IMG/VR virus record: IMGVR_UViG_3300044638_007755
Direction: 5' to 3' (one strand)
DNA from: an uncultured virus (IMG/VR IMGVR_UViG_3300044638_007755)
Lineage: Duplodnaviria; Heunggongvirae; Uroviricota; Caudoviricetes
DNA length: 64,000 bases
Position numbers and translations under genes: made by a program. This document shows positions 1 through 23,618 of this stretch, piece by piece (the stretch's first letter is position 1; every line of letters begins with the position of its first letter). A model generated the notes under the pieces. It searched no databases, was not told the DNA's origin, and saw only the letters and a list, made by a program, of their open reading frames with translations.

Positions 1-121
1 TTTCCTCCATATACATGATATTTGACATACTAGCATACAATACAATACCACAAATATAACCGAAAGCAACACTAATAAAGTCGAACTGATACATCCGTGT
101 ATCTCCATTTTGTTTAAGTGG

Positions 122-310
122 TCAATCCCCGTACCCTACCCAGAAATCATCATCCTTATCATTCTTCATAAGAGTAAAACCCCTGGCCCTCATAGCCTCG
201 TACTCATTTATCCTCTGCCACACTTCGCCCACAATAGAGAGAAAGTAGACAAACCCCAAAACTAAAAGAGTAACACCCATCCAAACCCACACCAGAATAA
301 AATCGCTCAT
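122..310 (-). CDS. small hypothetical membrane protein (early region)
   Basis: 62-aa ORF with an N-terminal hydrophobic stretch; directly downstream of 314..508. Confidence 0.6.
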   Translation of the reverse strand: MSDFILVWVWMGVTLLVLGFVYFLSIVGEVWQRINEYEAMRARGFTLMKNDKDDDFWVGYGD

Positions 311-313
311 GGG

Positions 314-508
314 TCAAGCCTCCACAGTGTTAGCAACATGGATCATATTCTCACACTGTTCAAGATAGCACGAACGATATTCGGTCAGACCGATTTTCAC
401 AACCATCATCTTTCCCTTGGGCTTATCAAGAACCCTACGAACTTCACCACGGTAATTCTCACCCTTATAATCAAACTCGACCCAATCATACCGCTTAATA
501 TAGTCCAT
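314..508 (-). CDS. small hypothetical protein (MDYIKRYDWVEF...)
   Basis: GAGGA RBS before ATG at 508; promoter TTGACA(586-581)-17-TAGAAT(563-558). The ORF-track N-terminal extension overlaps the promoter. Confidence 0.65.
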   Translation of the reverse strand: MDYIKRYDWVEFDYKGENYRGEVRRVLDKPKGKMMVVKIGLTEYRSCYLEQCENMIHVANTVEA

Positions 509-648
509 CGTACATTCCTCTTGGTTACTGGTCATCTTCTCTACATCTATTATCGACATTCTACACTGCAAAACTTTAGTTGTCAACCTTACAAGTCCCA
601 CAGGGTTCGCTGACTAGCCTGACTAGGCCACGTTTCGACCCCATAGGG

Positions 649-876
649 TTAGCTGAGACTAACCGGGGTTGGATTCGACCGATAGTATTTTGCCCACAGC
701 TCATCCATCACAAACTGGACAACACGATCATGAGTACCGCGACAAACGTAGTATCCCATGTGAATGTCGAACAGGGCAAACGATCCATCCTCTTTCGGAT
801 GAAACGTGAACCCACACTTGTAGGCATAGCCATTGATGCTACGCTTGACGGTCGAAACTTTCGGAGGCTTTCTCAT
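649..876 (-). CDS. small hypothetical protein (MRKPPKV...)
   Basis: Purine-rich leader and perfect TTGACA-17-TATAAT upstream; start trimmed from 933. Confidence 0.65.
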   Translation of the reverse strand: MRKPPKVSTVKRSINGYAYKCGFTFHPKEDGSFALFDIHMGYYVCRGTHDRVVQFVMDELWAKYYRSNPTPVSLS

Positions 877-1023
877 TTTCACTTTCTCTCTTTCTTGTCT
901 TACCATTATACATCTATTATCGTCATTTGTCAATAGGGTAGAACAGAAAAAGTTTCCTTACAATCTCGTAAGGTTCGGATGCCTATATATTGGTCAACAT
1001 ATGCAAACATTTTAATCATTGGA

Positions 1024-1105
1024 CGTAAGTCTATACAACATAAGCACTTACGACACGCCCGGCCCACCCCTCTCACCCTAAGTCCTTATGTGGTAAGGGT
1101 TTGTG
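1024..1105. repeat. 82-bp double-palindrome element, copy 1
   Basis: cgtaagtctat-acaacat-aagcacttacg, 24-bp GC-rich spacer, cctaagtcctt-atgtggt-aagggtttgtg. Confidence 0.9.
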
Positions 1106-1110
1106 TCGAG

Positions 1111-1266
1111 CTATTTGGCTAGGCGATACCTAAACAGCAGTTCAGTAGCAAGGTAGCTGATCAGCAGCTTGTAACCATCCCTCACTTCGGGAATTTTGCA
1201 AGTTTCCAGTTTGATCTGAGTATTCCTCAGAAGGTCTTGCATTGTACGGGTGTTCATGTCTTTCAT
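1111..1266 (-). CDS. small hypothetical protein (MKDMNTRT...)
   Basis: Own promoter and AG-rich leader; stop lies 5 bp from element copy 1. Confidence 0.6.
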   Translation of the reverse strand: MKDMNTRTMQDLLRNTQIKLETCKIPEVRDGYKLLISYLATELLFRYRLAK

Positions 1267-1316
1267 CTTTCTCTCTCTTTCTTGTGCTGCTATTCTACCA
1301 AACTTTTCCGATACTG

Positions 1317-1493
1317 TCAATTCCCCTTTTTTCTGCTAAGAGCAGCATGGCATACGATCTGATCAAGCGTATACCATTCACCATCACCGTATCGGCCGGA
1401 AAGCCGAATCTTCAGATTCTTTCCGATGATTTGCTGAACAATACCATATCCGTCAACCACTTGAACCACATCGCCAACCATGATCTTCTGCAT
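1317..1493 (-). CDS. small hypothetical protein, SH3/KOW-like (MQKIMVGDVVQV...)
   Basis: Own promoter; VGDxV start typical of small beta-barrel phage proteins. Confidence 0.6.
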   Translation of the reverse strand: MQKIMVGDVVQVVDGYGIVQQIIGKNLKIRLSGRYGDGEWYTLDQIVCHAALSRKKGN

Positions 1494-1601
1494 CTCTTTC
1501 TCTCTTTCTTGTGCTATGATTATACCACTATTATCGTCCAAAGTCAATAGGCTAGACCAGAAAAAGTTTCCTTACAATACCGTAAGGTTTGATGATCACG
1601 A

Positions 1602-1618
1602 TTGGCACAGCATTTGCT
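1602..1618 (+). promoter_or_regulatory. sigma54-type -24/-12 motif
   Basis: TTGGCACAGCATTTGCT matches YTGGCACGRNNNTTGCW; identical copy at 4087-4103, variant TTGGTACAACATTTGCT at 2806-2822. Confidence 0.55.
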
Positions 1619-1626
1619 ACATGATA

Positions 1627-1708
1627 CGTAAGTCGTTATCTGACAAGTACTTACGCTTCGCGTGGCGGGCCGCGTTTGCCCTAAGTGCTTATAGGGTAAC
1701 GCTTTACG
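1627..1708. repeat. 82-bp double-palindrome element, copy 2
   Basis: cgtaagtcgtt-atctgac-aagtacttacg ... cctaagtgctt-atagggt-aacgctttacg, 53-bp offset. Confidence 0.9.
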
Positions 1709-1741
1709 TCAACTGCTATATTTTTGTGCAGTAGTGTACGT

Positions 1742-2122
1742 TCATTCATCACTTTTGAAGCTGAACGGACTGATTTCTTCACCACAAGCAGCAATGGCAG
1801 CATACTGTCTGGTCAGTTCTTCGACACGTTCACGCGAACCCGGCTTGCCAACCGGAACGATCATGGTATCCTCACCCCCTACATAGCGGGGGTCAGCCTT
1901 TTCCTTGCGAACCTTTCCCAGATTCTTCAAAGCAGTACGATTGAACTTGATAACCTTTTCACTCACGACATAACGCTTCTGGTCAGTCACGCCGTAGACG
2001 TAATCGGTATCTTCTGTGATTCGATCATCTGGGATTTCCACGAGCATCGGCACGGCGATACCCTTGAAGATCATACGGGCTTGACGCTTGGCATTTTCGA
2101 TGATGGGGAACTTGGTTTTCAT
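1742..2122 (-). CDS. hypothetical protein (MKTKFPIIENAK...)
   Basis: 126-aa ORF with purine-rich leader and upstream promoter. Confidence 0.7.
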   Translation of the reverse strand: MKTKFPIIENAKRQARMIFKGIAVPMLVEIPDDRITEDTDYVYGVTDQKRYVVSEKVIKFNRTALKNLGKVRKEKADPRYVGGEDTMIVPVGKPGSRERVEELTRQYAAIAACGEEISPFSFKSDE

Positions 2123-2188
2123 TTTCTTTTTCTCTCTAAGGTCTATCGTTCTCTTGTTCGTGGATTCTATCAACAATTCTTTTCTCTA

Positions 2189-2398
2189 TCAACCCCCATT
2201 GTGGGTGGGCCGACGAGTCCAAGGGTGTCCGTAGGCATCGACTGCGGGCGAAAGCTCATGGTCTGCACAGTCATGAAGATTTCCACCTTCGGTACGCACT
2301 ACCCACACATTTCCCTCATCATAGTGATAGGAAACAATCTTTCCAACAATCTGCTTCTCGAATCCCTTGAGCATCACACTGTCGCCAATCTCGTACAT
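2189..2398 (-). CDS. small hypothetical protein, SH3-like (MYEIGDSV...)
   Basis: Own promoter and leader. Confidence 0.65.
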   Translation of the reverse strand: MYEIGDSVMLKGFEKQIVGKIVSYHYDEGNVWVVRTEGGNLHDCADHELSPAVDAYGHPWTRRPTHNGG

Positions 2399-2467
2399 TC
2401 TTTTCTCTCTTTCTCTTTCTGGTATTCTATCAAAGTTTTTGTGCTTGTCAATCCCCTCTAACGGGGG

Positions 2468-2671
2468 TCACATTCTCCATTCCACAAACTTGAGAACACA
2501 CACCTTTCCAGGATACTTTGCATCGATATACTTCTGTGCAGTAGTCTTGCTATTGTCTGTAGCAGAGCAACACTGAACAATCGTACCGTCGATTGAAACG
2601 CTCCAAATCCTACGCTTCCGAATCTTGGGAAGCGAACCAATGAAACCATTCACACTCATAACCTTTTCCAT
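2468..2671 (-). CDS. small hypothetical protein (MEKVMSVNG...)
   Basis: Own promoter and AG-rich leader. Confidence 0.6.
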   Translation of the reverse strand: MEKVMSVNGFIGSLPKIRKRRIWSVSIDGTIVQCCSATDNSKTTAQKYIDAKYPGKVCVLKFVEWRM

Positions 2672-2829
2672 TTTCAACTCTCTCTTTCTTTCTTCTCTAT
2701 CTCTTATATCGACATTATACCATGCTCATCTTGAGCTTTCAAGCTAAATCCAGAAATTTTTGTGTCAAGAGATTTTGACAAAACTTTTCTCGATTTTGTT
2801 GAGTTTTGGTACAACATTTGCTAAGTTGT

Positions 2830-2911
2830 CGTAAAGTCTTATATGGTAAGCACTTACGTCAAATCCGTCCCGCCCCGCTCGTCGTAAGTCTTTACGAGCT
2901 AAGGGCTTACG
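2830..2911. repeat. 82-bp double-palindrome element, copy 3
   Basis: cgtaaagtctt-atatggt-aagcacttacg ... cgtaagtcttt-acgagct-aagggcttacg. Confidence 0.9.
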
Positions 2912-3095
2912 TCGGACTCAGCTCATATAGTGAACAGTTGTATACGTTACCATCCTCATCCTGTACGGATGCCCACGCATTTGCCGTACCATATACAGCA
3001 TCCGCAAGCACGCCCATGAACGAACGTACAGTAACAACCTTAGAGCCGTGCATCACGGTTTGCCCATATCGAGGAGTATTTTCTACAGTGAACAT
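2907..3095 (-). CDS. small hypothetical protein
   Basis: AAAGGAAA leader; stop codon lies inside the right arm of element copy 3. Confidence 0.6.
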   Translation of the reverse strand: MFTVENTPRYGQTVMHGSKVVTVRSFMGVLADAVYGTANAWASVQDEDGNVYNCSLYELSPT

Positions 3096-3109
3096 TTGTT
3101 TTCCTTTGT

Positions 3110-3427
3110 TTAGTAGATAAGATTCATATCGGCTACAACCATACCATCTTCATACTCTAGGCCACTTTCCAGATACCACTCTCCCTTGCGTTGATATACA
3201 CGCACGGGCGAATACTGGTTGATTCTATCCTTAGTGGTGGCACTATACCATCCACCAGTGTTGAGCGTAGCACTATTGTCAGGATGAATCTTTACTACAT
3301 AGGTACTATGCAGCATAATCCCTACGCTACCATCAGGAAGAATTTCCGCATAGGTATTGTTGCCTACCTTGCGAGTATCCTTATTAGTCTTACCACGAAC
3401 CAATTTCACTGCTTCAGAGTGTGTCAT
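3110..3427 (-). CDS. hypothetical phage protein
   Basis: 105-aa ORF with an LNTGGWYSATTKDRIN motif that looks like a conserved small phage protein. Confidence 0.7.
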   Translation of the reverse strand: MTHSEAVKLVRGKTNKDTRKVGNNTYAEILPDGSVGIMLHSTYVVKIHPDNSATLNTGGWYSATTKDRINQYSPVRVYQRKGEWYLESGLEYEDGMVVADMNLIY

Positions 3428-3580
3428 ATTACATTATCCAAACGTATAGAGGAAGAAAAACAAACAGGAAAGCCCAACTACCAAACAGCAAAGCCAAGAT
3501 ACCTAATCCAGAAACTATTCCGAAAGTATCGATAGTCTCAGGATTCTCTCCCAACAGATTATAGCAAATCCACTTTTTCA

Positions 3581-3700
3581 TCAGTCGTTCTCATGCAGAA
3601 TGGAGTGAACAGCGTTACTTACCTCGTGAACAGTGTACGAGATGAAACCGGCAAAAGCAATCAAGGCAAACAGCTGAACGTATTCGATAGGCGTAATCAT
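3581..3700 (-). CDS. 39-aa membrane peptide (MITPIEYVQLFALIAFAGFISY...)
   Basis: Translated by hand (below the ORF-track cutoff); own promoter at 3726-3753. Confidence 0.5.
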   Translation of the reverse strand: MITPIEYVQLFALIAFAGFISYTVHEVSNAVHSILHEND

Positions 3701-3772
3701 TAGGTTCTCTCTTTCTTGTGTTTGTATTCTAGCAAGTTTTCTTGTGGTGTCAACCTTACAATGTCGTAAGGT

Positions 3773-3958
3773 TCACTTTTTCTGTCCGATGGTCATCCAG
3801 CCATCATTGACGGCTTTGATGGTAAACTTTGCATGGTCGATCATGCGAGAATCAGTGAACGTAGTACCATTCCTGTACACACGTACAATCTCGATTTCCT
3901 TGCCAATCACATGGTAATCGGCATACACACCACCAACAGCTATCATCATCGTTTGCAT
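3773..3958 (-). CDS. small hypothetical protein (MQTMMIAVGG...)
   Basis: Own promoter and leader. Confidence 0.6.
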   Translation of the reverse strand: MQTMMIAVGGVYADYHVIGKEIEIVRVYRNGTTFTDSRMIDHAKFTIKAVNDGWMTIGQKK

Positions 3959-4110
3959 CTTTGTCTCTCTTTCTCTCTTACTTCTTATATCGACATTATA
4001 CCCTCTCACACTTGAGCTTGCAAGAGAAAAATCCAAATTTTTATGTCAAGAAATTTTGACAAAACTTTTCTGAATTTTGAGTACGATTGGCACAGCATTT
4101 GCTAATGAGT

Positions 4111-4192
4111 CATAAGTGCTTATCTGTCAGGTACTTACGTCAAGCCCGGCCCGCCCGCCTAGCCCTAAGTACTTATAGGGCAGGGGTTTACG
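4111..4192. repeat. 82-bp double-palindrome element, copy 4
   Basis: cataagtgctt-atctgtc-aggtacttacg ... cctaagtactt-atagggc-aggggtttacg. Confidence 0.9.
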
Positions 4193-4408
4193 TCATGAGG
4201 CGTGAATGAACACCGTTTCGCTTACTGTACGGTTGGTCACCGTCACAATCCACTTCTTTCCGCTACCATCCTCACGCATGATGCCATTGATAAGACCCAC
4301 ATGGGCGTTACCCCTTGGATCGATCACACAGTGATACTTACCAGTTCGCATAGCAGCGAAAATCTTGTCAAGGTTGTTCATCACAGTTTTGTAGTTGGTC
4401 TGAAGCAT
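4193..4408 (-). CDS. small hypothetical protein
   Basis: Own promoter; stop codon abuts element copy 4. Confidence 0.65.
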   Translation of the reverse strand: MLQTNYKTVMNNLDKIFAAMRTGKYHCVIDPRGNAHVGLINGIMREDGSGKKWIVTVTNRTVSETVFIHAS

Positions 4409-4467
4409 CTTTTTTCCTCTTGTGTTGATTCTATTCTACCGTTTTGCTCTTACATTGTCAATACTGT

Positions 4468-4713
4468 TCAGAAGTATACGCTAGAATTAATGATCTTTCC
4501 GGTTTCATCGATTTCCATCGATTCGCCTTCACCCATATCGTATTCTTCCATATATCCAAAATACTCGCAAGAAGGCCACCAATCCTTACGGGCATTCTCC
4601 GCATGATTGCGAAGCATATCGAACAACTCGCCCGAAGCGTAGTGTCCGTCCAGATTCTCGGGCTGGTTGTCTTGGATATAGTCTAAAACTTCTTGCATCG
4701 TATTGAAGATCAT
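4468..4713 (-). CDS. small acidic hypothetical protein
   Basis: Own promoter; D/E-rich, 81 aa. Confidence 0.65.
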   Translation of the reverse strand: MIFNTMQEVLDYIQDNQPENLDGHYASGELFDMLRNHAENARKDWWPSCEYFGYMEEYDMGEGESMEIDETGKIINSSVYF

Positions 4714-4843
4714 TTTCTTATCCTTTTCTTCTTTCGTTTTCTCTTGTGTTCTTATTATACAGTATTTATCGACGCTTTCAAGAGAAATCTTTGGAATTTT
4801 TGAAATATAATTTCATGCCAAACAAAATCTTTTTTATATTTGT

Positions 4844-4925
4844 TGTAAGTCTATACGTGGCAAGTACTTATGTCGAATTCGGCCCGCCCGGCAAATCGTA
4901 AGTGCTTACCTCATAAGGCTTTACG
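4844..4925. repeat. 82-bp double-palindrome element, copy 5
   Basis: tgtaagtctat-acgtggc-aagtacttatg ... cgtaagtgctt-acctcat-aaggctttacg. Confidence 0.9.
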
Positions 4926-4927
4926 TC

Positions 4928-5077
4928 TTATAGAATCGTACCATCGCCACGAATGCGATACATGATACCCCCGATACTGTACAGGCTTATACCCTCTCCC
5001 ATGTGCTGTACAAATGTAGCAGAATAACCGTGTCGAGCAACTAGGCGGCGAATCGTGTGCTGTACTTGAATGGTCAT
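4928..5077 (-). CDS. 49-aa hypothetical protein (MTIQVQHTIRRLVARHGY...)
   Basis: Translated by hand; GAGGGA RBS, promoter 5102-5131; stop 2 bp from element copy 5. Confidence 0.55.
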   Translation of the reverse strand: MTIQVQHTIRRLVARHGYSATFVQHMGEGISLYSIGGIMYRIRGDGTIL

Positions 5078-5140
5078 CGTATTCCCTCTTGTGTTGATTC
5101 TATTATAGCTTATCGTCTACGATGCTGTCAATAGATGAAT

Positions 5141-5389
5141 TTAAAATTCCCCATCGTCAAGGCCCGGAATATAGTCAGCCTCATCCGCACAAGCTTCACA
5201 CACCATGTCATAGTAGAGGGCGTTTACGTTGTTCAGAATCTGATTCTCTGAACGAATCCACACACCGTCATGGATCATGTCTTTCGGCTCAATTTTGAAC
5301 GATGCTCCTGCTTGAATCACTCGCACCTTATGCGAATCCTTGCCAAAAATCTGTCGAACAGCAGCCATCACCTTGTCGAGCGTAATCAT
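5141..5389 (-). CDS. small hypothetical protein with acidic C-terminus
   Basis: Own promoter and leader. Confidence 0.65.
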   Translation of the reverse strand: MITLDKVMAAVRQIFGKDSHKVRVIQAGASFKIEPKDMIHDGVWIRSENQILNNVNALYYDMVCEACADEADYIPGLDDGEF

Positions 5390-5453
5390 TTTCTTTTCCT
5401 TTTCTCTTGTGTTGGCTCTATTATACAGTATCGGCTATTCCGTTGTCAATACC

Positions 5454-5696
5454 TTAGTAGTAAAGAAAATCTCGCACAACCTCACCATCACGAGCAACCT
5501 CGATATACTCTCCCTCGTCACCCATCGGGAAAAAGTATTCGATATATCCGGTAACATCGTTAGCAATATCGCTAGCAAGAGCCTCAGCGAGCAACTCTCC
5601 ACCGATACGAGCAACACCCACCAAAGTATCGGGGCTGGTCGAATCAGCACCATAGAGAAAGTTTTCGAGTTCGTTGCGGTTGTTGATGGTGATCAT
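5454..5696 (-). CDS. small acidic hypothetical protein (MITINNRNELE...)
   Basis: Own promoter; start trimmed from 5759. Confidence 0.65.
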   Translation of the reverse strand: MITINNRNELENFLYGADSTSPDTLVGVARIGGELLAEALASDIANDVTGYIEYFFPMGDEGEYIEVARDGEVVRDFLYY

Positions 5697-5827
5697 TTTC
5701 TTGTCCTCTTGTTGTCTCTTGTTCTCTTGTGCTTTCATTATACAGTATTTATCGGCCATTGCAAGAGAAATCTTTGGATTTTTTCGAATATATTTTCATG
5801 CCAAACATAAAAATTCTTCAAATTAGC

Positions 5828-5909
5828 CATAACCCTATACTACACAAGCACTTACATCAAATTTTGCCCACTAGTATCGTCGTAAGTGCCTATGCCATAT
5901 AGAGTTAGG
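5828..5909. repeat. 82-bp double-palindrome element, copy 6 (most divergent)
   Basis: cataaccctat-actacac-aagcacttaca ... cgtaagtgcct-atgccat-atagagttagg, 53-bp offset. Confidence 0.8.
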
Positions 5910-6019
5910 GGGTTTTTTCGTTTCGGCTTGACAGTTGGTAGTTTAGGTAAAAAACTCGGGGAGGTGCAAACACAATAGGCACCCCCATAGAATTAATTAG
6001 CCAGTTTATTAGCCATTTA

Positions 6020-6301
6020 TTAATATCTTACTGGCACATAAACCGTTTGAGGTACCGACACCACCTCAGTTTTTTTTAAAAGAGTCCAGCACCTACGTTC
6101 AACCAGAACATTTTGATACAATGTCACAGGAACATACTGTGGAGCCACAGGCACCATAGTTACCATTGGAACATAATAATATGGAACTACCGGAGCTTGT
6201 TGAATCACTACCGGAGCTTGATAAACATAAGGCATCCACTCACCACCATGAGCACTAACTCCTGCAACACTCATCAACAATCCCGCTAATAGCTTTTTCA
6301 T
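6020..6301 (-). CDS. small secreted Pro/Val/Tyr-rich protein
   Basis: Signal peptide MKKLLAGLLMSVAGVSAHG followed by low-complexity APVV/PYY/VPV sequence. Confidence 0.65.
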   Translation of the reverse strand: MKKLLAGLLMSVAGVSAHGGEWMPYVYQAPVVIQQAPVVPYYYVPMVTMVPVAPQYVPVTLYQNVLVERRCWTLLKKTEVVSVPQTVYVPVRY

Positions 6302-6376
6302 AAATTTTCCTACGAGTTAAAAATAAATTGACCAGTTTCCCGCTACTAGAGATATCGACAGATTGTTGTTGAAACT

Positions 6377-7306
6377 TTAGTAGTCTTTACAACACACGGA
6401 TAAATAGTAATCTATCGTATTCCTCAATCCAGTATCAAAATTTGTTTTAGCTTCCCAATCCAACAGACTTTTCGCCCTAGAAACATCAAGAAATCTTCGA
6501 GGTTGTCCATCTGGCTTATTAGAATCCCACTGAATAATTCCTTTATATCCAACCATATCCTTAATTTTATACACAAGATCACTTATACTAATTTCAAACC
6601 CACTCCCCAAATTAATAGGATCAGGATCGTTTATTTTTTCCAAAGCCTTAATTATTCCAGATGAAGCATCTTCAACATATAAAAACTCCCTTGTAGCATT
6701 GCCCGATCCCCAACATTGTATACTTGATAAATTATCTCTCTTAGCCACAACCAACTTCTTAATCAAAGCCGGAATAACATGACTCTTATCATCATCAAAA
6801 CTATCATTTGGCCCATATAAATTAGTTGGTATAACCACACAACCATTTAGATCATATTGAGCCTTATAACTCTGCATCATGACCATAATGCTCTTTTTTG
6901 CTATTCCATATGGAGCATTAGTTTCTTCTGGATATCCGTTCCAAATGTCGTCTTCTTTAAAAGGGGCCGGACAAAACTTAGGATAACAACAAACCGTACT
7001 AACAAACACAAACTTTTTAATATTCATCAACCGAGCATGTTCCACCAAATTAATTCCCATACTAATATTATTATAGAAGAACCTTCCAGGATTGACCATA
7101 TTCGCCCCTATACCTCCAACATCAGCAGCCAAATGAAGAATAACATCCGGAGATATTCTTTTTAGATAGGATCCTGTTTGTTCAAAATTGGTCAAATCAC
7201 AATCGGCTTTTCTAACAACAACAATATCTTGATATCCTTGGGACAATAGCTTCTTAACTACATTTTGTCCTAAAAATCCCGCTCCTCCAGTAACTAATAT
7301 TTTCAT
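6377..7306 (-). CDS. fcl: GDP-L-fucose synthase (GDP-4-keto-6-deoxymannose epimerase/reductase)
   Basis: TGGAGFLG Rossmann motif, HLAADVGGIGAN, YGIAK, PTNLYGPND, SHVIPALI, WGSG..TREFLYV, KPDGQPRR. Confidence 0.95.
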   Translation of the reverse strand: MKILVTGGAGFLGQNVVKKLLSQGYQDIVVVRKADCDLTNFEQTGSYLKRISPDVILHLAADVGGIGANMVNPGRFFYNNISMGINLVEHARLMNIKKFVFVSTVCCYPKFCPAPFKEDDIWNGYPEETNAPYGIAKKSIMVMMQSYKAQYDLNGCVVIPTNLYGPNDSFDDDKSHVIPALIKKLVVAKRDNLSSIQCWGSGNATREFLYVEDASSGIIKALEKINDPDPINLGSGFEISISDLVYKIKDMVGYKGIIQWDSNKPDGQPRRFLDVSRAKSLLDWEAKTNFDTGLRNTIDYYLSVCCKDY

Positions 7307-7342
7307 AGATGATTCTTTATGTGGGTTTGGCCTATTTAATAT

Positions 7343-7377
7343 AAAAGGAGCAAGCTTAACTAAATAAACTTACTCCT
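7343..7377 (-). terminator. probable intrinsic terminator downstream of 7412..7663
   Basis: Minus-strand AGGAGTAAGTTTA-loop-TAAGCTTGCTCCT followed by TTT; its G-U pairs form only on this strand. Confidence 0.55.
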
Positions 7378-7411
7378 ATTATACGGTATTAAATTTTAAT
7401 TAAGAACTACT

Positions 7412-7663
7412 TCAAGTGGTTGTCTGTTCTGTTGAAACAGTACCAACAACATTCTGCACAACAGGAGAACTCTTTGACTTATTTGGTCGTCCTCTTGGCT
7501 TACTTAGCCTAAGTTTGCGTCGTTGACGACGAATCATAGCCATAGTAATATTTTGGCTGGTAATTTGGCTAAGCTTAACAGCTAGCTCTTCATCAGGGAT
7601 AGAGGTATGATTATTGCGAATATAGTCAATTTCGCTATCTGTCCACTTTTTATAATTTCCCAT
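7412..7663 (-). CDS. small HTH DNA-binding protein with AT-hook-like KPRGRP
   Basis: KKWTDSEIDYIRNN..PDEELAVKL..IRRQRRKLRL pattern; AAGGAG RBS. Confidence 0.7.
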   Translation of the reverse strand: MGNYKKWTDSEIDYIRNNHTSIPDEELAVKLSQITSQNITMAMIRRQRRKLRLSKPRGRPNKSKSSPVVQNVVGTVSTEQTTT

Positions 7664-7688
7664 AAACTCTCCTTTGGTGTTATTAATA

Positions 7689-7717
7689 TTGACAAATCTT
7701 TCGAAAGATCATATTAT
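7689..7717 (+). promoter_or_regulatory. sigma70 promoter with a palindromic operator in the spacer
   Basis: TTGACA-17-TATTAT; perfect 14-bp palindrome ATCTTTCGAAAGAT at 7696-7709. Confidence 0.7.
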
Positions 7718-7752
7718 ATTACATCTTGGCAAGTTAAGTGCAAGGAGAAAAA

Positions 7753-7956
7753 ATGTCAAATTCAAATTTTGATCATAATCTTATAAATTCGATACTAACA
7801 GTAAAAGCGTCAGAACAATCGAATTCTGATGTTGCTAAAGACCTAAATCTTCCCGAAGGAAAAACCATAGCAGAATTATTAGATGACAAAAAAAATATCG
7901 CCAGACAAACAGAAGAAACAGAGCAAGAAGAAATCGACCAAGCTGAAGAAAACTAA
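7753..7956 (+). CDS. small acidic hypothetical protein
   Basis: AAGGAG RBS before ATG at 7753. Confidence 0.55.
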   Translation: MSNSNFDHNLINSILTVKASEQSNSDVAKDLNLPEGKTIAELLDDKKNIARQTEETEQEEIDQAEEN

Positions 7957-8620
7957 AACTAAATCTAGTAAAAGTTCTCCACAAACCTTATCTAATAATG
8001 TTAGCGAAGAAGAGTTTTTATTAGTTTTAGATAATATCAGCAGAAGATTAGCTCATAAATTCAAATTTGCTTACCATAGTTTTGATGACATGAAGCAACA
8101 AGCTGCTATTTTTGCTCTTGAGGGACTAGAAAAATACGACAGAAGTAGACCATTAGAAAATTTTCTTTGGACCCACGTAAGAAATAGATTATTTAATTAT
8201 AAGAGAAATAATTATCAAAGACCAGATAAACCATGCATCTCTTGTCCTCTTTTTGATAAGACTTATAAATGCTCTAACAACCAATGCTCTGCTTATACAA
8301 ATAAAAAAGACTGTGAGCTTTATGCTGCTTGGAGCAAACGGAACGAAACTAAAAAAAATATTATTCAACCATCATATATCGAAGACGATAATCATCATGT
8401 AGATAAAAGCTCTAATATTACAGACATAATACAAAATCAAGAAATTATTAGTTTTTTGGATGCAAACATTCGTAACGAATATAGAGAATCATATCTCAAA
8501 CTTAAACACGGCATGAAGATTCCAAAGCAACAACTCAATAAACTTCAAAATCATATCCTTAAACTTATGGAGAATACAAAGTGGAAAAACCATCAGCTCC
8601 ACGAAAACGAGGACAACTAA
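7883..8620 (+). CDS. phage RNA polymerase sigma factor (sigma70 region 2-like) with a Cys-rich insert
   Basis: FDDMKQQAAIFALEGLEKYD..LENFLWTHVRNRLFNYKR resembles region 2.2-2.4; CISC..C..C..C cluster follows. Confidence 0.7.
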   Translation: MTKKISPDKQKKQSKKKSTKLKKTKTKSSKSSPQTLSNNVSEEEFLLVLDNISRRLAHKFKFAYHSFDDMKQQAAIFALEGLEKYDRSRPLENFLWTHVRNRLFNYKRNNYQRPDKPCISCPLFDKTYKCSNNQCSAYTNKKDCELYAAWSKRNETKKNIIQPSYIEDDNHHVDKSSNITDIIQNQEIISFLDANIRNEYRESYLKLKHGMKIPKQQLNKLQNHILKLMENTKWKNHQLHENEDN

Positions 8621-9408
8621 GTTTAGACGAAGAAAAATTTATTCGAGATAATGTAACTAAGATGTCCATGGAAGACATAGCAGAAAATCTCAATAGAAAT
8701 ACTGCTCCAATTAAACGATATATTAATGAAAACCAACTATTAATAACGGATGAAGATAAAAGCAGTAATGAATTTTTAAGATATAAACTGTATAGCAAAA
8801 CCTTTTGGGGAGAAATTAAAAGACAATTTGATGAAGATACTGGCGAATTAAAATATTTTGAAGATACATGGATTGGCCTAATAAAACAATTTAGAGAAGA
8901 CGTTTTACCAGCTGAAGAACTACAGATCAAACAATTTATTACAATTGATATTCTTATTAATCGAAGTATGAAAGAGCGCAAAAGACATATCGCAGAAACT
9001 GAAAAACTTCAAAAACAGGTTGATAAAGAATATGAGAGACCTGAATCAGAACGAGATATTCCTAAACTGGCTAATCTTGAGACACAACTTTCGTTCGCAC
9101 GTAACAGTATCGCTAATTACACTAATGAATATACCAAGCTCCTTAATGAACAGCAAAAAATTAGCAAAGATCTTAAAGCAACAAGAGAGCAAAGAATCAA
9201 ACGAATAGAAGACGGTAAGAGCTCTTGGACAGGATTAATACGAATGCTAGAAGATGAACAGATCAGAGAGAAAGAAGGACGAGAGATGGAAATTTTAAAC
9301 ATGGCTACAGAGAAGACCATGAAACAACTTAGTTCTTTACATACATTCCAGGATAATACTGTAGACAGACCATTTTTAACCCCAGAAACAGTAGAGGAAG
9401 ATTCATGA
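8581..9408 (+). CDS. HTH plus coiled-coil protein, candidate terminase small subunit
   Basis: N-terminal HTH (MSMEDIAENLNRNTAPIKRY), long coiled coil, located upstream of TerL. Confidence 0.45.
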   Translation: MEKPSAPRKRGQLSLDEEKFIRDNVTKMSMEDIAENLNRNTAPIKRYINENQLLITDEDKSSNEFLRYKLYSKTFWGEIKRQFDEDTGELKYFEDTWIGLIKQFREDVLPAEELQIKQFITIDILINRSMKERKRHIAETEKLQKQVDKEYERPESERDIPKLANLETQLSFARNSIANYTNEYTKLLNEQQKISKDLKATREQRIKRIEDGKSSWTGLIRMLEDEQIREKEGREMEILNMATEKTMKQLSSLHTFQDNTVDRPFLTPETVEEDS

Positions 9409-10400
9409 CTAAAACTGCTCTAATAACAGGAATCACAGGACAAGATGGATCATACTTAGCAGAACTTTTACTTCAAAAAGACTATACAGTAGTAGGCTTA
9501 TATAGAAGAACTAGTATTGATCATTTTGACAGAATTAAACATTTAGGCCAAAACCCTAACTTAACATTAGAAGAATTCGATTTAACAGATCCCTCGAATG
9601 TAATTAATACTATAGACAAATATCAACCAGATGAATTCTATAATTTAGCTGCACAAAGTCATGTTGAAACTAGTTTTCGACAGCCAACCACAACTTTTGA
9701 AATTGACACTATAGGTGTTATTAATATTTTAGAGGCTATTCGACACTATTCGTCTTCTACAAAATTCTATCAAGCTAGTACTAGTGAGATGTTTGGTCGT
9801 AATTTTAGTACTTGTCCAGATACTAATATTAAATATCAGGATGAAAATACTGAGCTTTTACCTCAAAGTCCATACGGAGTGGCAAAAGTAGCTAGTCATC
9901 GCATGGTACAAATTTATCGAGATGGTTATGGTTTATTTGCTACTAGCGGAATTTTATTTAATCATGAAAGTCCACGACGAGGCGAAAACTTTGTTACTCG
10001 TAAAATAACTAAGTATATCGGCAATTTAGTTAATAATGGGTACTCAGAAAATTTAAAACTAGGAAATCTTAGGGCCCAACGAGATTGGGGACATGCTAAG
10101 GATTATGTTAGAGCAATGTGGCTAATGTTACAGCAGGATGTTGCTGATGACTTTGTTATTTGTACCGGTCAAACTTGGAGTGTACTAGACTTTGTTAGAA
10201 CCTCATTTGAATATGTTAATTTGGATTATACAAAATATTTAGAAATTGATCCATCTTTATGTCGTCCAGCCGAAGTTGATTATTTAAGAGGACGTAATAC
10301 CAAAGCGCATAACATATTGAACTGGTCACCAGAAATAGACTTTAATACTCTTATTAAAGATATGGTAGATCATGATATAGGAACAGTATCTAATGTCTAG
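9405..10400 (+). CDS. gmd: GDP-mannose 4,6-dehydratase
   Basis: ALITGITGQDGSYLAELLL, YNLAAQSHV, FYQASTSEMFG, PQSPYGVAK, LFNHESPRRGENFVTRKIT, RDWGHAKDYV. Confidence 0.97.
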   Translation: MTKTALITGITGQDGSYLAELLLQKDYTVVGLYRRTSIDHFDRIKHLGQNPNLTLEEFDLTDPSNVINTIDKYQPDEFYNLAAQSHVETSFRQPTTTFEIDTIGVINILEAIRHYSSSTKFYQASTSEMFGRNFSTCPDTNIKYQDENTELLPQSPYGVAKVASHRMVQIYRDGYGLFATSGILFNHESPRRGENFVTRKITKYIGNLVNNGYSENLKLGNLRAQRDWGHAKDYVRAMWLMLQQDVADDFVICTGQTWSVLDFVRTSFEYVNLDYTKYLEIDPSLCRPAEVDYLRGRNTKAHNILNWSPEIDFNTLIKDMVDHDIGTVSNV

Positions 10401-10671
10401 AAATTATGATGATCCAATATATAAAAAATGGAGATTACAAATTTACGAAAGAGACAAATTTAAGTGCCAATGGCCAGGATGTAATATTACTAAAAAATTA
10501 AATGCTCACCATATTAAAAGATGGGCAGATAATCCTGGGTTAAGATATAATCCTTTAAACGGTATTACATTATGTAAAAATCATCATAAAATGGTAACTG
10601 GCTTAGAATCTTACTATGAAGCAATTTTTCTAAAAATAGCAGCAAATAACAATGACAACAAATCACAATGA
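10393..10671 (+). CDS. HNH endonuclease
   Basis: RDKFKCQWPGC..AHHI..NGITLCKNHH. Confidence 0.85.
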   Translation: MSRNYDDPIYKKWRLQIYERDKFKCQWPGCNITKKLNAHHIKRWADNPGLRYNPLNGITLCKNHHKMVTGLESYYEAIFLKIAANNNDNKSQ

Positions 10672-11137
10672 CTTTACTATAATCGTAGATACACGAGAAC
10701 AACAACCTTGGACATTTGATAATTATGCCGTAGCTCATAGAAAGCTTGACGCTGGAGACTATAGTATTGAGGGACTTGAAAATATTTTGGCTATTGAAAG
10801 AAAAAAAAGTGTAAATGAAATTGCTAACAATATTATTGAAAGTAGATTTAAGGACGCTATAGCAAGACTATCAGAACATAAGTATGCTTTTTTGTTATTA
10901 GAATTTGATATTCAAAATGTATTAAACTATCCTATTGGAAGCAATTTACCTAAAAGGCTTTGGGATAAAATTAAGATTAGCCCAGCTTTCTTAATGAAAC
11001 ATATTTTGGAGTGGCAAACGGAACATAATATTAAAGTCATGTTTTGCGGATCATCTAGCGATGCTGAAAGCGTGGCGGAATTCATACTAAACAAGGTTTA
11101 TTATTTAGAAGTAATTAAAAAGGAGAAATTATCATGA
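10652..11137 (+). CDS. ERCC4/XPF-family structure-specific nuclease
   Basis: IIVDTREQ, LDAGDY, IERK motifs. Confidence 0.85.
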   Translation: MTTNHNDFTIIVDTREQQPWTFDNYAVAHRKLDAGDYSIEGLENILAIERKKSVNEIANNIIESRFKDAIARLSEHKYAFLLLEFDIQNVLNYPIGSNLPKRLWDKIKISPAFLMKHILEWQTEHNIKVMFCGSSSDAESVAEFILNKVYYLEVIKKEKLS

Positions 11138-19818: not shown

Positions 19819-21156
19819 ATGTCAGTTCAAACATTAATTCAAATTAGAAGAGGAACCACATCAGAGTGGTCTTCGGTCAATCCAACACTAGGTGCTGGAG
19901 AATGGGGTTATGATACAACATCTAAAAGATATAAACTAGGAGACGGATTAACCTCATGGAATAGCTTATTATATTCCTCTATAAGACCATCGTCTAACGA
20001 TCTTGTTGGAACTAGTGGTATAGGAATAACATTTGCGGCAACAACAGGGATTCCAGTAACTATTGCTGTTACAGGAATAGTGTCATCACAAATTACAGAT
20101 TTTAATACTGCTGTAGATAATAGAATTAGTAGTGCTGCTATTGATGCAGAAGGAATACAAGATATTGTTGGTAGTGGTAATCATACCTCGACGGGATTTT
20201 TAAGAAATGGTACTGGGATCTTATTAGATTATAATGACAGTTCTAATTATTTAACTATTAATGTTAGTGGATATGCGCCCTCTGGCCACACACATGATGA
20301 TAGATACTATACCGAAACAGAGCTAAATACTAGCGGAGGTGGAGGTCAAGTTCATTGGGATAATCTAACGAGTAAACCAGCAACATTTACACCATCGAGT
20401 CATAATCATTCGTGGAGTGAGATTACAGATGCTTCCGCAAGAGCAACTCTCGGAGAATTATCTTATTTATCTGGAGTAAGTGCTGGAACAGCATCTGCTA
20501 ATAGAGCTGTAATATTAGATATAAATAAAGATATATCTGGTATTGGATCAATTTCTACAACTGGTAATATTACGGTTGGTGGTAATTTAACAGTTAACGG
20601 AACTACTACTACTGTTAATAGTACTACTGTTGATATTGGAGACAATATTATTAGAGTTAATGTTTCTGGCGCGGCTACTCAAGGCGGTTTGGAAGTTAAA
20701 AATACATCAACAGCTGGTATAACTCAATTAGTTTGGGACACAGAGGATAGTAGATGGGAGTTTACTGGTGGTAATGTTTATACTAGTGGATATTTCATTG
20801 GGTCATTAAGTGGAAATGCTAGTACCGTAACTAATGGAGTTTATACTAGCGATAGTGGAACAGTAACTAGTTTAATGATTGCTAATAATACAATTGTTAA
20901 TGCAGATATTAATAGTAGTGCTGCAATTGATTATAGTAAATTAAATCTATCAAATTCTATTCAAAATAGTGATATTAGTAATTCCGCAGGCATAAGTGTT
21001 ACTAAACTAGCTAGTAGTGGTATTACTATCGGTTCCACAACCGCTGTTCTAGGCACCACCATATCTAGTATTGTTGGATTGACATCTATTAGTGGTACGA
21101 GTACAGGCTCACCAACAGCCTTATACAACTGTCTTATTGATGGCGGTACTCCATGA
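19819..21156 (+). CDS. fibre protein with Mtd-like N-terminal domain
   Basis: IQIRRGT..EW..NPTL..GEWGYDT..KLGDG..WNSL; HTHDDRYYTE fibre motif. Confidence 0.8.
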   Translation: MSVQTLIQIRRGTTSEWSSVNPTLGAGEWGYDTTSKRYKLGDGLTSWNSLLYSSIRPSSNDLVGTSGIGITFAATTGIPVTIAVTGIVSSQITDFNTAVDNRISSAAIDAEGIQDIVGSGNHTSTGFLRNGTGILLDYNDSSNYLTINVSGYAPSGHTHDDRYYTETELNTSGGGGQVHWDNLTSKPATFTPSSHNHSWSEITDASARATLGELSYLSGVSAGTASANRAVILDINKDISGIGSISTTGNITVGGNLTVNGTTTTVNSTTVDIGDNIIRVNVSGAATQGGLEVKNTSTAGITQLVWDTEDSRWEFTGGNVYTSGYFIGSLSGNASTVTNGVYTSDSGTVTSLMIANNTIVNADINSSAAIDYSKLNLSNSIQNSDISNSAGISVTKLASSGITIGSTTAVLGTTISSIVGLTSISGTSTGSPTALYNCLIDGGTP

Positions 21157-21273: not shown

Positions 21274-22923
21274 ATGGCAGTAAATGACCTAATAACATTT
21301 CGCAAAGGAACATCTGAACAATGGAATTCTGCTAATCCTATTTTAGCTAGTGGTGAGCCCGGATATGATTTAACGAATAGTGTTCTTAAGATAGGTGATG
21401 GTGTTTCTAATTGGGTGGCTCTTAGTGGAATAGGATCGACTAGTGTTGGTGGGTCATCGTCCTCCTATGTTGGAGTTAGAGGAATAATAAGCACAACAGG
21501 AACATTGACCAGTTTTGCAGTATCGGGAGGCTATCCAGTCGGATATCTGGACCTGTTCCAAGATGGAGTTAAGTTAGTATCAACTTTAGATTTTTCTGCA
21601 ACAGACGGATCTAATGTTACTCTCAATAACAGTGTCCCATCAGGAACAGTTTTAGAATATGCTAGTTTAGGAGCTTCAGTATCTTCTTCTAATTATACTA
21701 AACTAGATAATATAAGCTCATCTTTTAACGGATCATCTACATCATTTGGATTAGCGGTTAGTGGAACAGCGTATTATCCAGTAAGCGCCAATACTTTGGG
21801 AATTTATGTGGGAGGTGTTGCTCAGGAACCAATCTCTTCATATAGTGTTAGTGGATCAGATATAGTTTTTACCGAAGCTCCAGCTAGTGGATTAACTTTC
21901 TGGGGAGTCGGCTATGGAACAACGGCGGTGGCTACATTAAATGGAATAGTTCCTGGCTCATCAGGATCACCAGCTATTAGTTCATCCAGAGACCCTTCAA
22001 CAGGATTTTATTTTCCAAGTTCTGGTAATATTTCTGTAGCTGGCAATTTAGGAATAGGAACATCATCACCATCGAGCAAACTTCATGTAGTTGGTAGCAT
22101 TACTGCTACTAGTGGTAATTTTACTAATAATTTACAAGTTAATAATGTTAATGTTAGCGTTAGTGGACACTCTCATACTGTTAGTGATATTATTAATTTT
22201 AATAGTAGTGTTAGCGGCTTATTGCCAATTACTAATATAATTGCTGAAAGTGGAATCAATGTTTCTATTAGCGGAACAACAGCTACTATAACTAGTAATG
22301 ATACTACTAAGTGGAACTTGTTTTTACCTGCTGCTCCGACTAACCTTGTGGCTACCGCTGGCAACGGTCAGGTATCACTATCATGGACTGCGCCATCGGG
22401 TGTGATATCGCAGGCTCCGATCACAGACTATCTCGAACAGTACAGCACAAATAGCGGAACAACGTGGACGACATTTTCTGCGACTGCATCGACAGCTACG
22501 AATGCTACAATAACAGGGTTGACCAACGGTACTTCGTATGTATTCCGTGTGGCGGCGACGAATGGCATCGGAACAGGAAGCTACTCGGAGGCATCGAGTG
22601 CCGTGACGCCGAATTCGGCGAGCGTTCCTGGTGCTCCGACTTCACTGCGAAATGCCGACAACTACTGGGGATGTTCGTCTAACGATACTATGTGGAACAC
22701 ACCAGTGTCTAACGGCGGGTCGGCAATTACGGGATACGTTTGGCGAATCGGTAGCGGAGCGACGACCAGTGTGGCTCCGTCCAGCGGAACCCGGCCCGCA
22801 GGGTCTTATACGGGCGGTTTTATCGACAATCACGCGCCCACCGGCTCGTTCCAAGTTGCTGCCGTCAATGCCGTTGGGACGGGGCCGTTTGCGTCAATCA
22901 CTCTTCAACAGGACTGCAACTAA
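21274..22923 (+). CDS. fibre protein, Mtd-like N-terminus plus two FN3 domains
   Basis: RKGT..W..NPILASGEPG..KIGDG; PAAPTNL..LSWTAP..GLTNGTSYVFRVAA. Confidence 0.8.
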   Translation: MAVNDLITFRKGTSEQWNSANPILASGEPGYDLTNSVLKIGDGVSNWVALSGIGSTSVGGSSSSYVGVRGIISTTGTLTSFAVSGGYPVGYLDLFQDGVKLVSTLDFSATDGSNVTLNNSVPSGTVLEYASLGASVSSSNYTKLDNISSSFNGSSTSFGLAVSGTAYYPVSANTLGIYVGGVAQEPISSYSVSGSDIVFTEAPASGLTFWGVGYGTTAVATLNGIVPGSSGSPAISSSRDPSTGFYFPSSGNISVAGNLGIGTSSPSSKLHVVGSITATSGNFTNNLQVNNVNVSVSGHSHTVSDIINFNSSVSGLLPITNIIAESGINVSISGTTATITSNDTTKWNLFLPAAPTNLVATAGNGQVSLSWTAPSGVISQAPITDYLEQYSTNSGTTWTTFSATASTATNATITGLTNGTSYVFRVAATNGIGTGSYSEASSAVTPNSASVPGAPTSLRNADNYWGCSSNDTMWNTPVSNGGSAITGYVWRIGSGATTSVAPSSGTRPAGSYTGGFIDNHAPTGSFQVAAVNAVGTGPFASITLQQDCN

Positions 22924-23465
22924 TGAGCGTTATTCTTCTAAGCAATTTTGTTAGCGAGAGCGAACGAGCCTCACTGCTGGCGTGGTGCGACACCAATGCT
23001 GCGTGCCTCGGAGACGCAAGAACTGCGGACGGCGAGTCGTATTTGTTGCGTAAAATCTCCAACAGCAACGCGGTGGTGGAGGCTGGCGGATTCCCCGAAG
23101 TTGCCTATCAGGTGCAGAGCCGTATCAGGGAGCGGTTCCCGATGCTGGGGGTCTCGCTGCCGCGATTCCTAGACGGTATGACGGTTGGTGTTCTCCTTCC
23201 CGGCGGAGAGTTTCCAGAACACGTTGACCATCATTTCCGGCAGGACGGTCTGGTGTGTGTCGGCGTGAACGCATTGCTTTCCGCTCCAGCGTCAGGCGGC
23301 GTAGTGAGCGTTGACGGCGTGGAGCGAGAGCAGCGGGAAGGAGACGCGCTGGTCTATCTTCTGTCGGAACAGATTCATGGCGTTTCCCAAGTTAATGGCA
23401 ACGTCAAGCGAGTCGTCTGGTCGTGGCGCTTCATGGTCGATCCGGCTGCTTGGGGTGCGACGTGA
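22923..23465 (+). CDS. 2OG-Fe(II) oxygenase (prolyl 4-hydroxylase-like)
   Basis: HVD..GG..H.V..V....R facial-triad pattern; GC-rich. Confidence 0.8.
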   Translation: MSVILLSNFVSESERASLLAWCDTNAACLGDARTADGESYLLRKISNSNAVVEAGGFPEVAYQVQSRIRERFPMLGVSLPRFLDGMTVGVLLPGGEFPEHVDHHFRQDGLVCVGVNALLSAPASGGVVSVDGVEREQREGDALVYLLSEQIHGVSQVNGNVKRVVWSWRFMVDPAAWGAT

Positions 23466-23618
23466 AACACTTAATCGAATTCCTAATCTGCGGCACCCTA
23501 CCCTCGTATACACCAAGCGACCGCGGCACCGCCACACTGAGCATCTCATAGGAGTAGTAACAATATAGTGTATATTATCATAAACCTACTAATTATAATC
23601 TTTATTTAAATAACCATT

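Follow-up and report, generated by a model that had tools for sequence, protein, structure and literature searches.

Six twin-dyad elements in an array of small early genes

The DNA analysed here is a 64,000-bp stretch from an uncultured tailed virus (Caudoviricetes; IMG/VR record IMGVR_UViG_3300044638_007755), hereafter called the window. Its left end is part of an array of very small early genes, which is punctuated by six copies of an 82-bp element (e1 to e6; Table 1); these elements are the subject of this work. Every gene in 1-5909 lies on the minus strand; the remainder of the window is taken up by a virion module on the plus strand, which encodes the large terminase, the portal and a 4208-aa tape-measure protein. 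Outside the array the GC content is about 33%, mostly 30-40% with a few richer 1-kb stretches in the rest of the window.

Each element consists of two 29-bp imperfect dyads (site 1 and site 2) whose starts are 53 bp apart in all six copies, and the six coordinates and the spacing given in a preliminary description of this DNA could be verified. The 24-bp spacer reported there was found in 6/6 elements as well; it is GC-rich in five of them (GC 0.62-0.79), but not in the border copy e6 (0.38). The proposed organisation into arms of 11 bp around a core of 7 bp applies to 12 of the 12 sites, although the dyads are far from perfect: per site, 4-9 of the 11 arm positions form Watson-Crick pairs and 0-3 further positions G-T pairs. 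The 7-bp cores all differ among the six copies. A profile built from these copies and run with nhmmer returned only the same six places in the window, all inside 1022-5912, whereas the bare word TAAGT-N15-ACTTA with up to two mismatches occurred 57 times in the whole window against 70.8 expected, i.e., at chance level outside the array. Five copies have a minus-strand neighbour ending towards them, and in four of these its stop codon is inside the element or at most 6 bp away (stops at 1111, 2907, 4193 and 4928), four being also the number of cases noted before; the fifth stop, at 1742, is at a distance of 34 bp.

The mini-genes had also been described as self-promoted. Indeed, a scan of 1-5800 revealed 15 promoter-like sites on the minus strand that match at least 10 of the 12 consensus positions. 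In the direction of the genes, a unit runs from the upstream stop codon through site 2, G+C-rich spacer, site 1, linker, -35 box, -10 box and purine-rich leader to the ATG. Parts of this arrangement recur as three types of repeated module, each present in two copies (Table 1). The purine-rich leader, ACAAGAAAGAGAGAAAG, stands immediately 5' of the ATG in most array genes (e.g., 1267-1291, 1494-1518 and 2399-2423); unlike them, the late genes have shorter GGAG- or GAGG-type sites before the ATG. An Rfam scan of 1-8000 with E values up to 1 gave only a chance match to miR-430 (24 bits, cut-off 47 bits), and no tRNA gene was found in the 64-kb window.

Table 1 Position and properties of the array, its elements and modules, and adjacent genes in the window
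Feature	Position	Strand	Properties
Part of the early mini-gene array in the window	1-5909	minus	about 18 open reading frames (ORFs) of 39-126 aa; 42-45% GC
Element e1	1024-1105	minus (strand of the genes punctuated)	twin dyad, sites 1024-1052 and 1077-1105, 24-bp GC-rich spacer
Element e2	1627-1708	minus	twin dyad
Element e3	2830-2911	minus	twin dyad; TTA of the outer arm is the stop codon of gene 2907-3095
Element e4	4111-4192	minus	twin dyad; abutted by the stop of gene 4193-4408
Element e5	4844-4925	minus	twin dyad; stop of gene 4928-5077 is 3 bp off
Element e6	5828-5909	minus	most degenerate copy; right border of the array, with the first array promoter downstream
Module type A (terminator hairpin, promoter, leader)	879-975	minus	second copy 1493-1589, 85% alike
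Module type B (element, linker, promoter, leader)	2671-2913	minus	second copy 3952-4194, 72% alike
Module type C (promoter, leader)	4708-4827	minus	second copy 5691-5810, 84% alike
Canonical intrinsic terminator	956-973	minus	CCTTAC hairpin followed by T-run, between e1 and the next promoter
Canonical intrinsic terminator	1570-1587		second copy of the CCTTAC type, after e2
Canonical intrinsic terminator of gene 6020-6301	5950-5986	minus	8-bp GC-rich stem and UUUUUU, just upstream of e6
83-aa small protein	7412-7663	minus	weak match to phage transcriptional regulators, phrog_323, E 7e-5
Sigma-70 region-2-like protein	7883-8620	plus	Pfam 22.7 bits, under the 24-bit cut-off

The element family in related viral genomes

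One related record (G001) is 100% identical to the window over 9 kb, and in it the array extends past the left end of the window: the fetched stretch of G001 contains 11 elements, namely the six of the window and five more. The twin-site pattern matched more than 240 stretches of viral contigs, often several times per contig. Using the sigma-like protein as a marker to collect the phage family, we obtained 169 IMG/VR relatives on contigs of up to about 244 kb. An nhmmer search over 317 loci identified 910 places corresponding to 474 distinct copies in related viral contigs; these copies are interrelated, not independent, and the window itself supplied the profile and the pattern by which part of them were retrieved. 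The length of the element is fixed, as 456 of the 474 distinct copies show no net length change over the 88-nt profile.

Four of the related genomes are complete (229-244 kb, three with terminal repeats) and carry 18, 19, 18 and 25 elements. In each of them, all elements are confined to one array of ~20 kb, and a reversed control pattern gave 0-1 matches. With up to two mismatches in 12 positions, the array spans of the four genomes contain 24, 26, 32 and 32 promoters on the coding strand, while the opposite strand of the fetched stretches contains 0-4.

The source is an uncultured giant freshwater phage family with genomes of about 230-245 kb. Comparison of 1-8000 with cultured phages by blastn produced a single unrelated match of 162 bp, the large terminase (TerL) is at most 28% identical to that of any cultured phage, with no cultured relative in the phage collection, and the sigma-like protein had no match among cultured phages.

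Conservation of bases, spacing and structure

The family consensus, derived from 456 copies, is gtCgTAAgtcgTTgnnnnatAAGnACTTACGtCaAanncGGcCggCCcnncTnGcCcTAAGTcCTTatgnnncAAgGntTTAcGtcaa. Positions A6, T27, T28, A59, A60, T80 and T81 are 99-100% conserved, the blocks TAA, TT, AA(G) and (C)TTA are present in both sites, and positions 40-47 hardly ever deviate from G or C. The inner arms facing the spacer are the best-kept parts. The core columns 15-19 and 68-72 contain only 0.03-0.35 bits, so the variability of the cores pointed out for the six copies extends to the family, and the arm interiors are nearly free too. An IHF-like core (AA-N4-TTR) was considered and set aside, the conserved C of the IHF core being replaced by T in the element.

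Despite the dyad symmetry, the alignment contained no sign of a conserved fold. The fraction of paired arm positions observed over the 456 copies and that predicted by independent columns were 0.677 and 0.688 for site 1, 0.693 and 0.686 for site 2, and 0.652 and 0.659 for a long stem of site 1 with site 2. No base-pair covariation was detected in any register, with no anti-diagonal more than 0.016 above expectation; the strongest mutual information connected adjacent columns and pointed to register variants such as TAAGT and TAAAG. Since bases and spacing are fixed and covariation is absent, the pattern bears the mark of a protein site and not of folded RNA or DNA. Judging from these alignments, selection appears to keep bases at a fixed spacing on duplex DNA. 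We therefore favour, of the two alternatives offered in the preliminary description, cooperative binding sites for one protein.

A rival explanation is punctuation at the level of RNA or single-stranded DNA, in which the early transcripts would form two hairpins from the palindromes, or one long stem of site 2 with site 1. Such a structure could be a factor-dependent or U-less terminator, an attenuator, an RNase processing site or a 3' stabiliser, similar to the RNase III sites in the early region of T7 or to the stem-loops of the promoter(early)-stem-loop elements (PeSLs) of T4-type phages. The position, after a stop codon and before the next promoter, is precisely where a terminator would be expected, and canonical terminators are rare inside the arrays: the G005 array had one convincing case in 16.5 kb, and 8 terminator-like sites were counted there compared to 11.8 in shuffled sequences. 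This rarity leaves room for RNA-level punctuation, and it makes a role as a transcription boundary attractive, whether through a bound protein or otherwise. In addition, equivalently placed PeSL stem-loops were shown to terminate transcription (PMC2839356). The copies fold with a mean minimum free energy (MFE) of -25.6 kcal/mol per 88 nt and a family median z of -1.8 against mononucleotide shuffles, and some copies fold well as RNA (e3, z = -2.9), but e4 is no better than its dinucleotide shuffles (z = -0.35).

The same calculations speak against a folded transcript when the columns of the alignment are taken into account, as column-shuffled copies reach -24.9 kcal/mol and there is thus practically no folding gain. 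Covariation is absent from all three possible helices, 36% of the arm positions are unpaired (64% Watson-Crick), and G.U in the mRNA sense is not favoured over C.A. Near-invariant bases would be unusual for a stem. Furthermore, no T-run follows the element: a scan of 1-9000 found terminator-like sites, yet none at the six elements, and separate canonical hairpin-plus-T-run terminators adjoin e1, e2 and e6. Taken together, we consider punctuation by a folded strand unlikely.

The hairpin CCTTAC-loop-GTAAGG, found at 956-973, 1570-1587 and 3754-3771, contains the element-arm word GTAAG/CTTAC in the opposite order. Two of its copies are followed by a T-run and are terminator-like, and the third overlaps a -35 box.

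Placement relative to stop codons and promoters

The placement of the elements was studied with 341 distinct copies for which 300-bp flanks were available, and a promoter-like site was sought within 150 bp. Such a site was present downstream of 184 of the 341 copies, upstream of three and, for 36 copies, at the other side but on the opposite strand. For 157/341, the end of the upstream open frame falls in the interval from -5 to +9 relative to the first base of the element, and its stop codon is often the TGA or TAA contained in the conserved TTGACGTAA edge. A conserved A/T-rich stretch of the ATTTTTCTAAAG type, which resembles an UP element, is present in the linker.

Distances from site 1 to the -35 box cluster at 19, 29-30 and 40 bp, with roughly one helical turn between successive peaks. 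A Rayleigh test on clustered linkers gave R = 0.43-0.49 for periods of 10.5-11.5 bp, values that are inflated by the single-peaked spread of the distances; helical phasing of the element with respect to the -35 box is thus suggestive. Across five arrays, a stringent promoter follows 58 of the 91 elements, and an element precedes 62 of the 137 promoters. The 25 bp upstream of promoters with an element have an A+T content of 0.65, compared to 0.53 for promoters without one. We dismissed the possibility that the elements are themselves promoters for the phage sigma-like factor, as the motif does not occur in the 58 kb of late genes.

Recombination and the movement of cassettes

The preliminary description had offered tyrosine-recombinase crossover sites (integron- or pdif-like) as the other alternative. 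According to this explanation, a tyrosine recombinase, either XerCD-like from the host or a phage enzyme that escaped recognition, would act on each 29-bp dyad as a core-type site, and the 11-7-11 geometry and the location of the element at the 3' end of a cassette, with the stop codon inside or abutting, agree with it. The search for such an enzyme was negative. The absence of a recombinase from the window, reported before, was borne out by 58 ORFs compared with Pfam and 21 with PHROGs, and none was found among 81 ORFs from two arrays and their flanks, most of which belong to no Pfam family (the exceptions being a few phage DUFs, Kyano_Gp96, DUF932 and PRTase). In five related records, four of them complete, no protein reached the Pfam cut-off for tyrosine recombinases (PF00589); the one sub-threshold match, in G002 with 24.2 bits, is 60 kb away from the array of this genome. 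Likewise, serine recombinases (PF00239) and Y1 transposases (PF01797) were found in none of the four complete genomes. The controls for these searches matched 14, 12 and 6 of 14 reference genomes.

The gene content between elements does vary among relatives. Five array spans contained 354 homology-block ends. An element was at most 10 bp away from 86 of them, whereas 35.5 ± 5.5 were expected under the null model, a 2.4-fold enrichment (the maximum share in 2000 random draws was 15%). Promoter modules, however, are also enriched (86 block ends against 48.8 ± 6.6, 1.8-fold), with the remaining 182 in other places, and those close to an element range over profile positions -15 to 96 without focus on the cores. 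These figures are to be read with the reservation that block ends are not independent, that alignments may be cut short or prolonged by a conserved island as such, and that crossovers cannot be located from BLAST ends when identity is about 80%. Individual cases illustrate the exchange. Compared to relatives, the window has an insertion of 194 bp with one gene that begins exactly at the outer edge of e3; the relative L008 is devoid of the stretch from about 980 to 1496, which is bounded by the two type A modules; and the unit g03, consisting of an ORF and an element, stands before g01 in G005. Homologues of the 18 mini-genes of the window are collinear in G002, G003, L003 and L008 apart from presence or absence, and a few of them have moved in G004, G005 and L006.

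Core-type recombination requires matching overlap regions between partner sites, but the cores are not kept between copies. Since, moreover, no enzyme was found in four complete genomes, block ends cover the whole element and the promoter modules, attC-like structural covariation is absent, the cassettes have promoters of their own and gene order is mostly collinear, we do not uphold the crossover-site reading and regard it as highly improbable. The term cassette-like remains adequate in that units are gained, lost and occasionally moved, but not in the sense of exchange directed to the elements alone. The enrichment of block ends at elements and promoter modules alike fits ordinary homologous exchange at repeated regulatory modules. 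With about 20-30 repeats in one orientation, both kinds of module would serve as homology patches. A further variant, namely that the twin dyads dock a dedicated phage protein of an unrecognised family which both fences the early units and targets the capture and exchange of cassettes, i.e., an integron-like platform without a tyrosine recombinase, seems to us very improbable.

Finally, the element could be a functionless repeat: a selfish miniature element, or a joint inherited with duplicated cassettes, retained because recombination at the repeat spreads the cassettes. The 18-25 copies per genome are found only in the hyperplastic array, they are linked to duplicated promoter modules and are enriched at homology-block ends, as this explanation would have it. 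Unselected decay, on the other hand, would not leave single bases with 99-100% conservation beside free positions, nor an unchanged length in 456 of 474 copies when their sequences are only about 60-75% alike. The strong orientation bias (184 copies, against 36 with the promoter-like site on the opposite strand at the other side) and the failure to find a transposase (PF01797) in the four complete genomes also contradict it, and we rate a functionless repeat as quite improbable.

Candidate binder, host search and neighbouring genes

The gene for the 83-aa protein adjoins the sigma-like gene in five of five related records and is located 1.5-12 kb from the array. That this small protein binds the element is a speculative guess from the neighbourhood; a PDB search with it gave no match. 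In the complete relative G004, the sigma-like gene (C1:44321-45007) contains two in-frame TAG codons, which may indicate stop-codon recoding or a broken gene.

Candidate hosts were scanned with a 19-base pattern over bacterial genome contigs. The eight loci found were six multi-element phage arrays and two chance matches, with no host-encoded site among them. The short multi-element contigs (L319, L320, L322, L323, L325 and L326) are in metagenome-assembled genome (MAG) bins labelled Gammaproteobacteria, Ca. Planktophila, Alphaproteobacteria, Methylococcaceae and Planctomycetota, and are most likely wrongly binned phage contigs. As the matches are phage contigs in bins of five different labels, they point neither to a host nor to a site encoded by one.

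The pair of regulator-like and sigma-like genes is flanked by a NAD-dependent sugar epimerase (6377-7306, minus strand) and a GDP-mannose 4,6-dehydratase (9405-10400, plus strand); related genomes have sulfotransferases in the equivalent zone. An HNH endonuclease and an ERCC4-type nuclease are encoded at 10393-11137, just upstream of the large terminase. Three ORFs of related contigs (L333:10144-10590, L334:7311-7682 and L327:10351-10722) show a weak likeness to the C-terminal domain of ribosomal protein L7/L12; the L7/L12-like array proteins of two relatives are just under the Pfam cut-off (E about 2e-5 to 5e-5). In the virion module, the neighbouring proteins 19819-21156 and 21274-22923 both have an N-terminal Mtd_N domain, the second one also fn3, and this pair adjoins the stretch 22000-24000, which has a GC content of 48-54% compared to about 33% for the phage. 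Both may function in receptor binding or be the target of a diversity-generating system. The tape-measure protein is encoded by a single ORF (35932-48558) with a PhageMin_Tail domain at residues 198-403, and its length of 4208 aa implies a very long tail.

A model for the function of the element

Our preferred explanation, which we hold with moderate confidence, is that the elements are paired double-stranded DNA binding sites for a protein and mark the boundaries of early transcription units, and that they double as homology linkers of the PeSL kind. In this model, the element would be a cis-acting site of two 29-bp dyads, five helical turns apart around a GC-rich centre, probably bound cooperatively by a sequence-specific phage or host protein. 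It would mark the boundary of an early unit by its place directly after one stop codon and 19-90 bp before the next A/T-rich stretch and promoter. Once bound, the protein would act on early transcription over the whole ~20-kb array by insulating, blocking or timing it. Both protein binding and its effect are inferred from sequence. At the same time, elements and promoter modules would act as homology patches, by which mini-gene cassettes are gained, lost and sometimes moved through ordinary recombination.

Besides the folding of some copies and the scarcity of canonical terminators discussed above, several observations count against this explanation. Related copies are no independent samples for either conservation or covariation. 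A stringent promoter within 150 bp is lacking for 33 of the 91 elements, and an element for 75 of the 137 promoters, so the element is neither needed for nor tied to every promoter. Promoters with and without an element deviate from the consensus by 1.22 and 1.27 mismatches, respectively, and this equal strength gives no sign of activator dependence. Moreover, no binder was identified, the regulator-like 83-aa protein being a speculative, neighbour-based proposal.

In large phages, the fastest-evolving genes, many of them probably for host takeover or counter-defence, are found in arrays of tiny self-expressed cassettes. To our knowledge, the control and reshuffling of such arrays is known only for the PeSLs of T4-type phages. 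The family described here is unrelated to them and uses a far more elaborate joint. If one protein reads all copies, it would give access to the entire early programme of the phage at one point, and the element would be a defined bait for this regulator and perhaps for the host. Besides, the element is a simple marker of this phage family in metagenomes, including contigs misbinned into bacterial MAGs.

Comparison with known systems

The attC sites of integrons and the pdif modules are imperfect palindromes after each cassette ORF, and their small cassettes are in one orientation. Integrons have the IntI integrase, attI and a common promoter for promoterless cassettes, and the attC fold is kept by pairing and not by sequence. 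The element shares with them the imperfect palindrome directly after the ORF and the single orientation of small cassettes, but differs in the lack of an integrase gene, the absence of fold covariation, the variable cores and the presence of 24-32 promoters per array that serve the cassettes. Furthermore, its twin sites are in direct order, whereas pdif modules alternate the order of XerC and XerD sites.

The repetitive extragenic palindromes (REP) and bacterial interspersed mosaic elements (BIMEs) of enterobacteria are palindromic pairs around a linker, located extragenically at the 3' ends of genes, and bind gyrase, IHF and Pol I. BIMEs reside in the chromosome, owe their spread to RAYT transposases and have no link to a downstream promoter. 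The pairing of palindromic units around a linker at gene 3' ends is common to both, but none of the four complete genomes has a RAYT/Y1 transposase, the orientation of our elements is biased 184 to 36, and there is no sequence likeness.

A closer parallel in terms of regulation is phage phi29, in which a small phage protein, p4, binds cooperatively to paired dyads with A/T blocks at the A2c, A2b and A3 promoters and turns early transcription off. The elements resemble these sites as paired dyads with A/T blocks upstream of and between early promoters. However, phi29 has one control region with an unrelated motif, while about 20 copies are distributed over 20 kb here.

We also considered a site of the CGRE1 type, a host site bound by the GntR-type regulator PMM1637/PlmA (PMC6191309), and rejected it because arms and spacing differ. 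CGRE1 is a single site of 21-22 nt flanked by GTTG or GTTA and starts 55-57 nt upstream of the transcription start (PMC6191309). The element has arms of the form TAAGT...ACTTA in two 29-bp sites 53 bp apart, is located further upstream and precedes promoters with a full -35 box.

Word searches of the literature for a description of the element returned only papers on PeSLs, bearing in mind that a motif cannot be searched there as a sequence. In T4-type phages, recombination at these repeated promoter-terminator joints gives rise to mini-circles (PMC2839356; PMC4122927). The element shares several features with PeSLs: in both cases, a stop codon, a palindromic part, an A/T-rich stretch, a strong sigma70-type promoter and a leader form the joint between ORFan genes, the early region is hyperplastic, with many copies per genome and cassettes that have their own expression signals, and indels and replacements between relatives end at the joints. 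The differences concern mainly the palindromic part, which in the element is a twin dyad of a fixed length of 82 bp with near-invariant bases and a GC-rich centre. It is placed 19-90 bp upstream of the -35 box, whereas the PeSL stem-loops are mostly between or over the -35 and -10 boxes, and, with neither covariation nor a U-tract, it appears to behave as a protein site and not as a terminator stem. The phages themselves are unrelated, as reflected in the low identity of the terminase to that of any cultured phage. Among the joints of phage early regions, the element stands out by the fixed twin-dyad geometry and the number of about 20 copies per genome, in an uncultured phage family.

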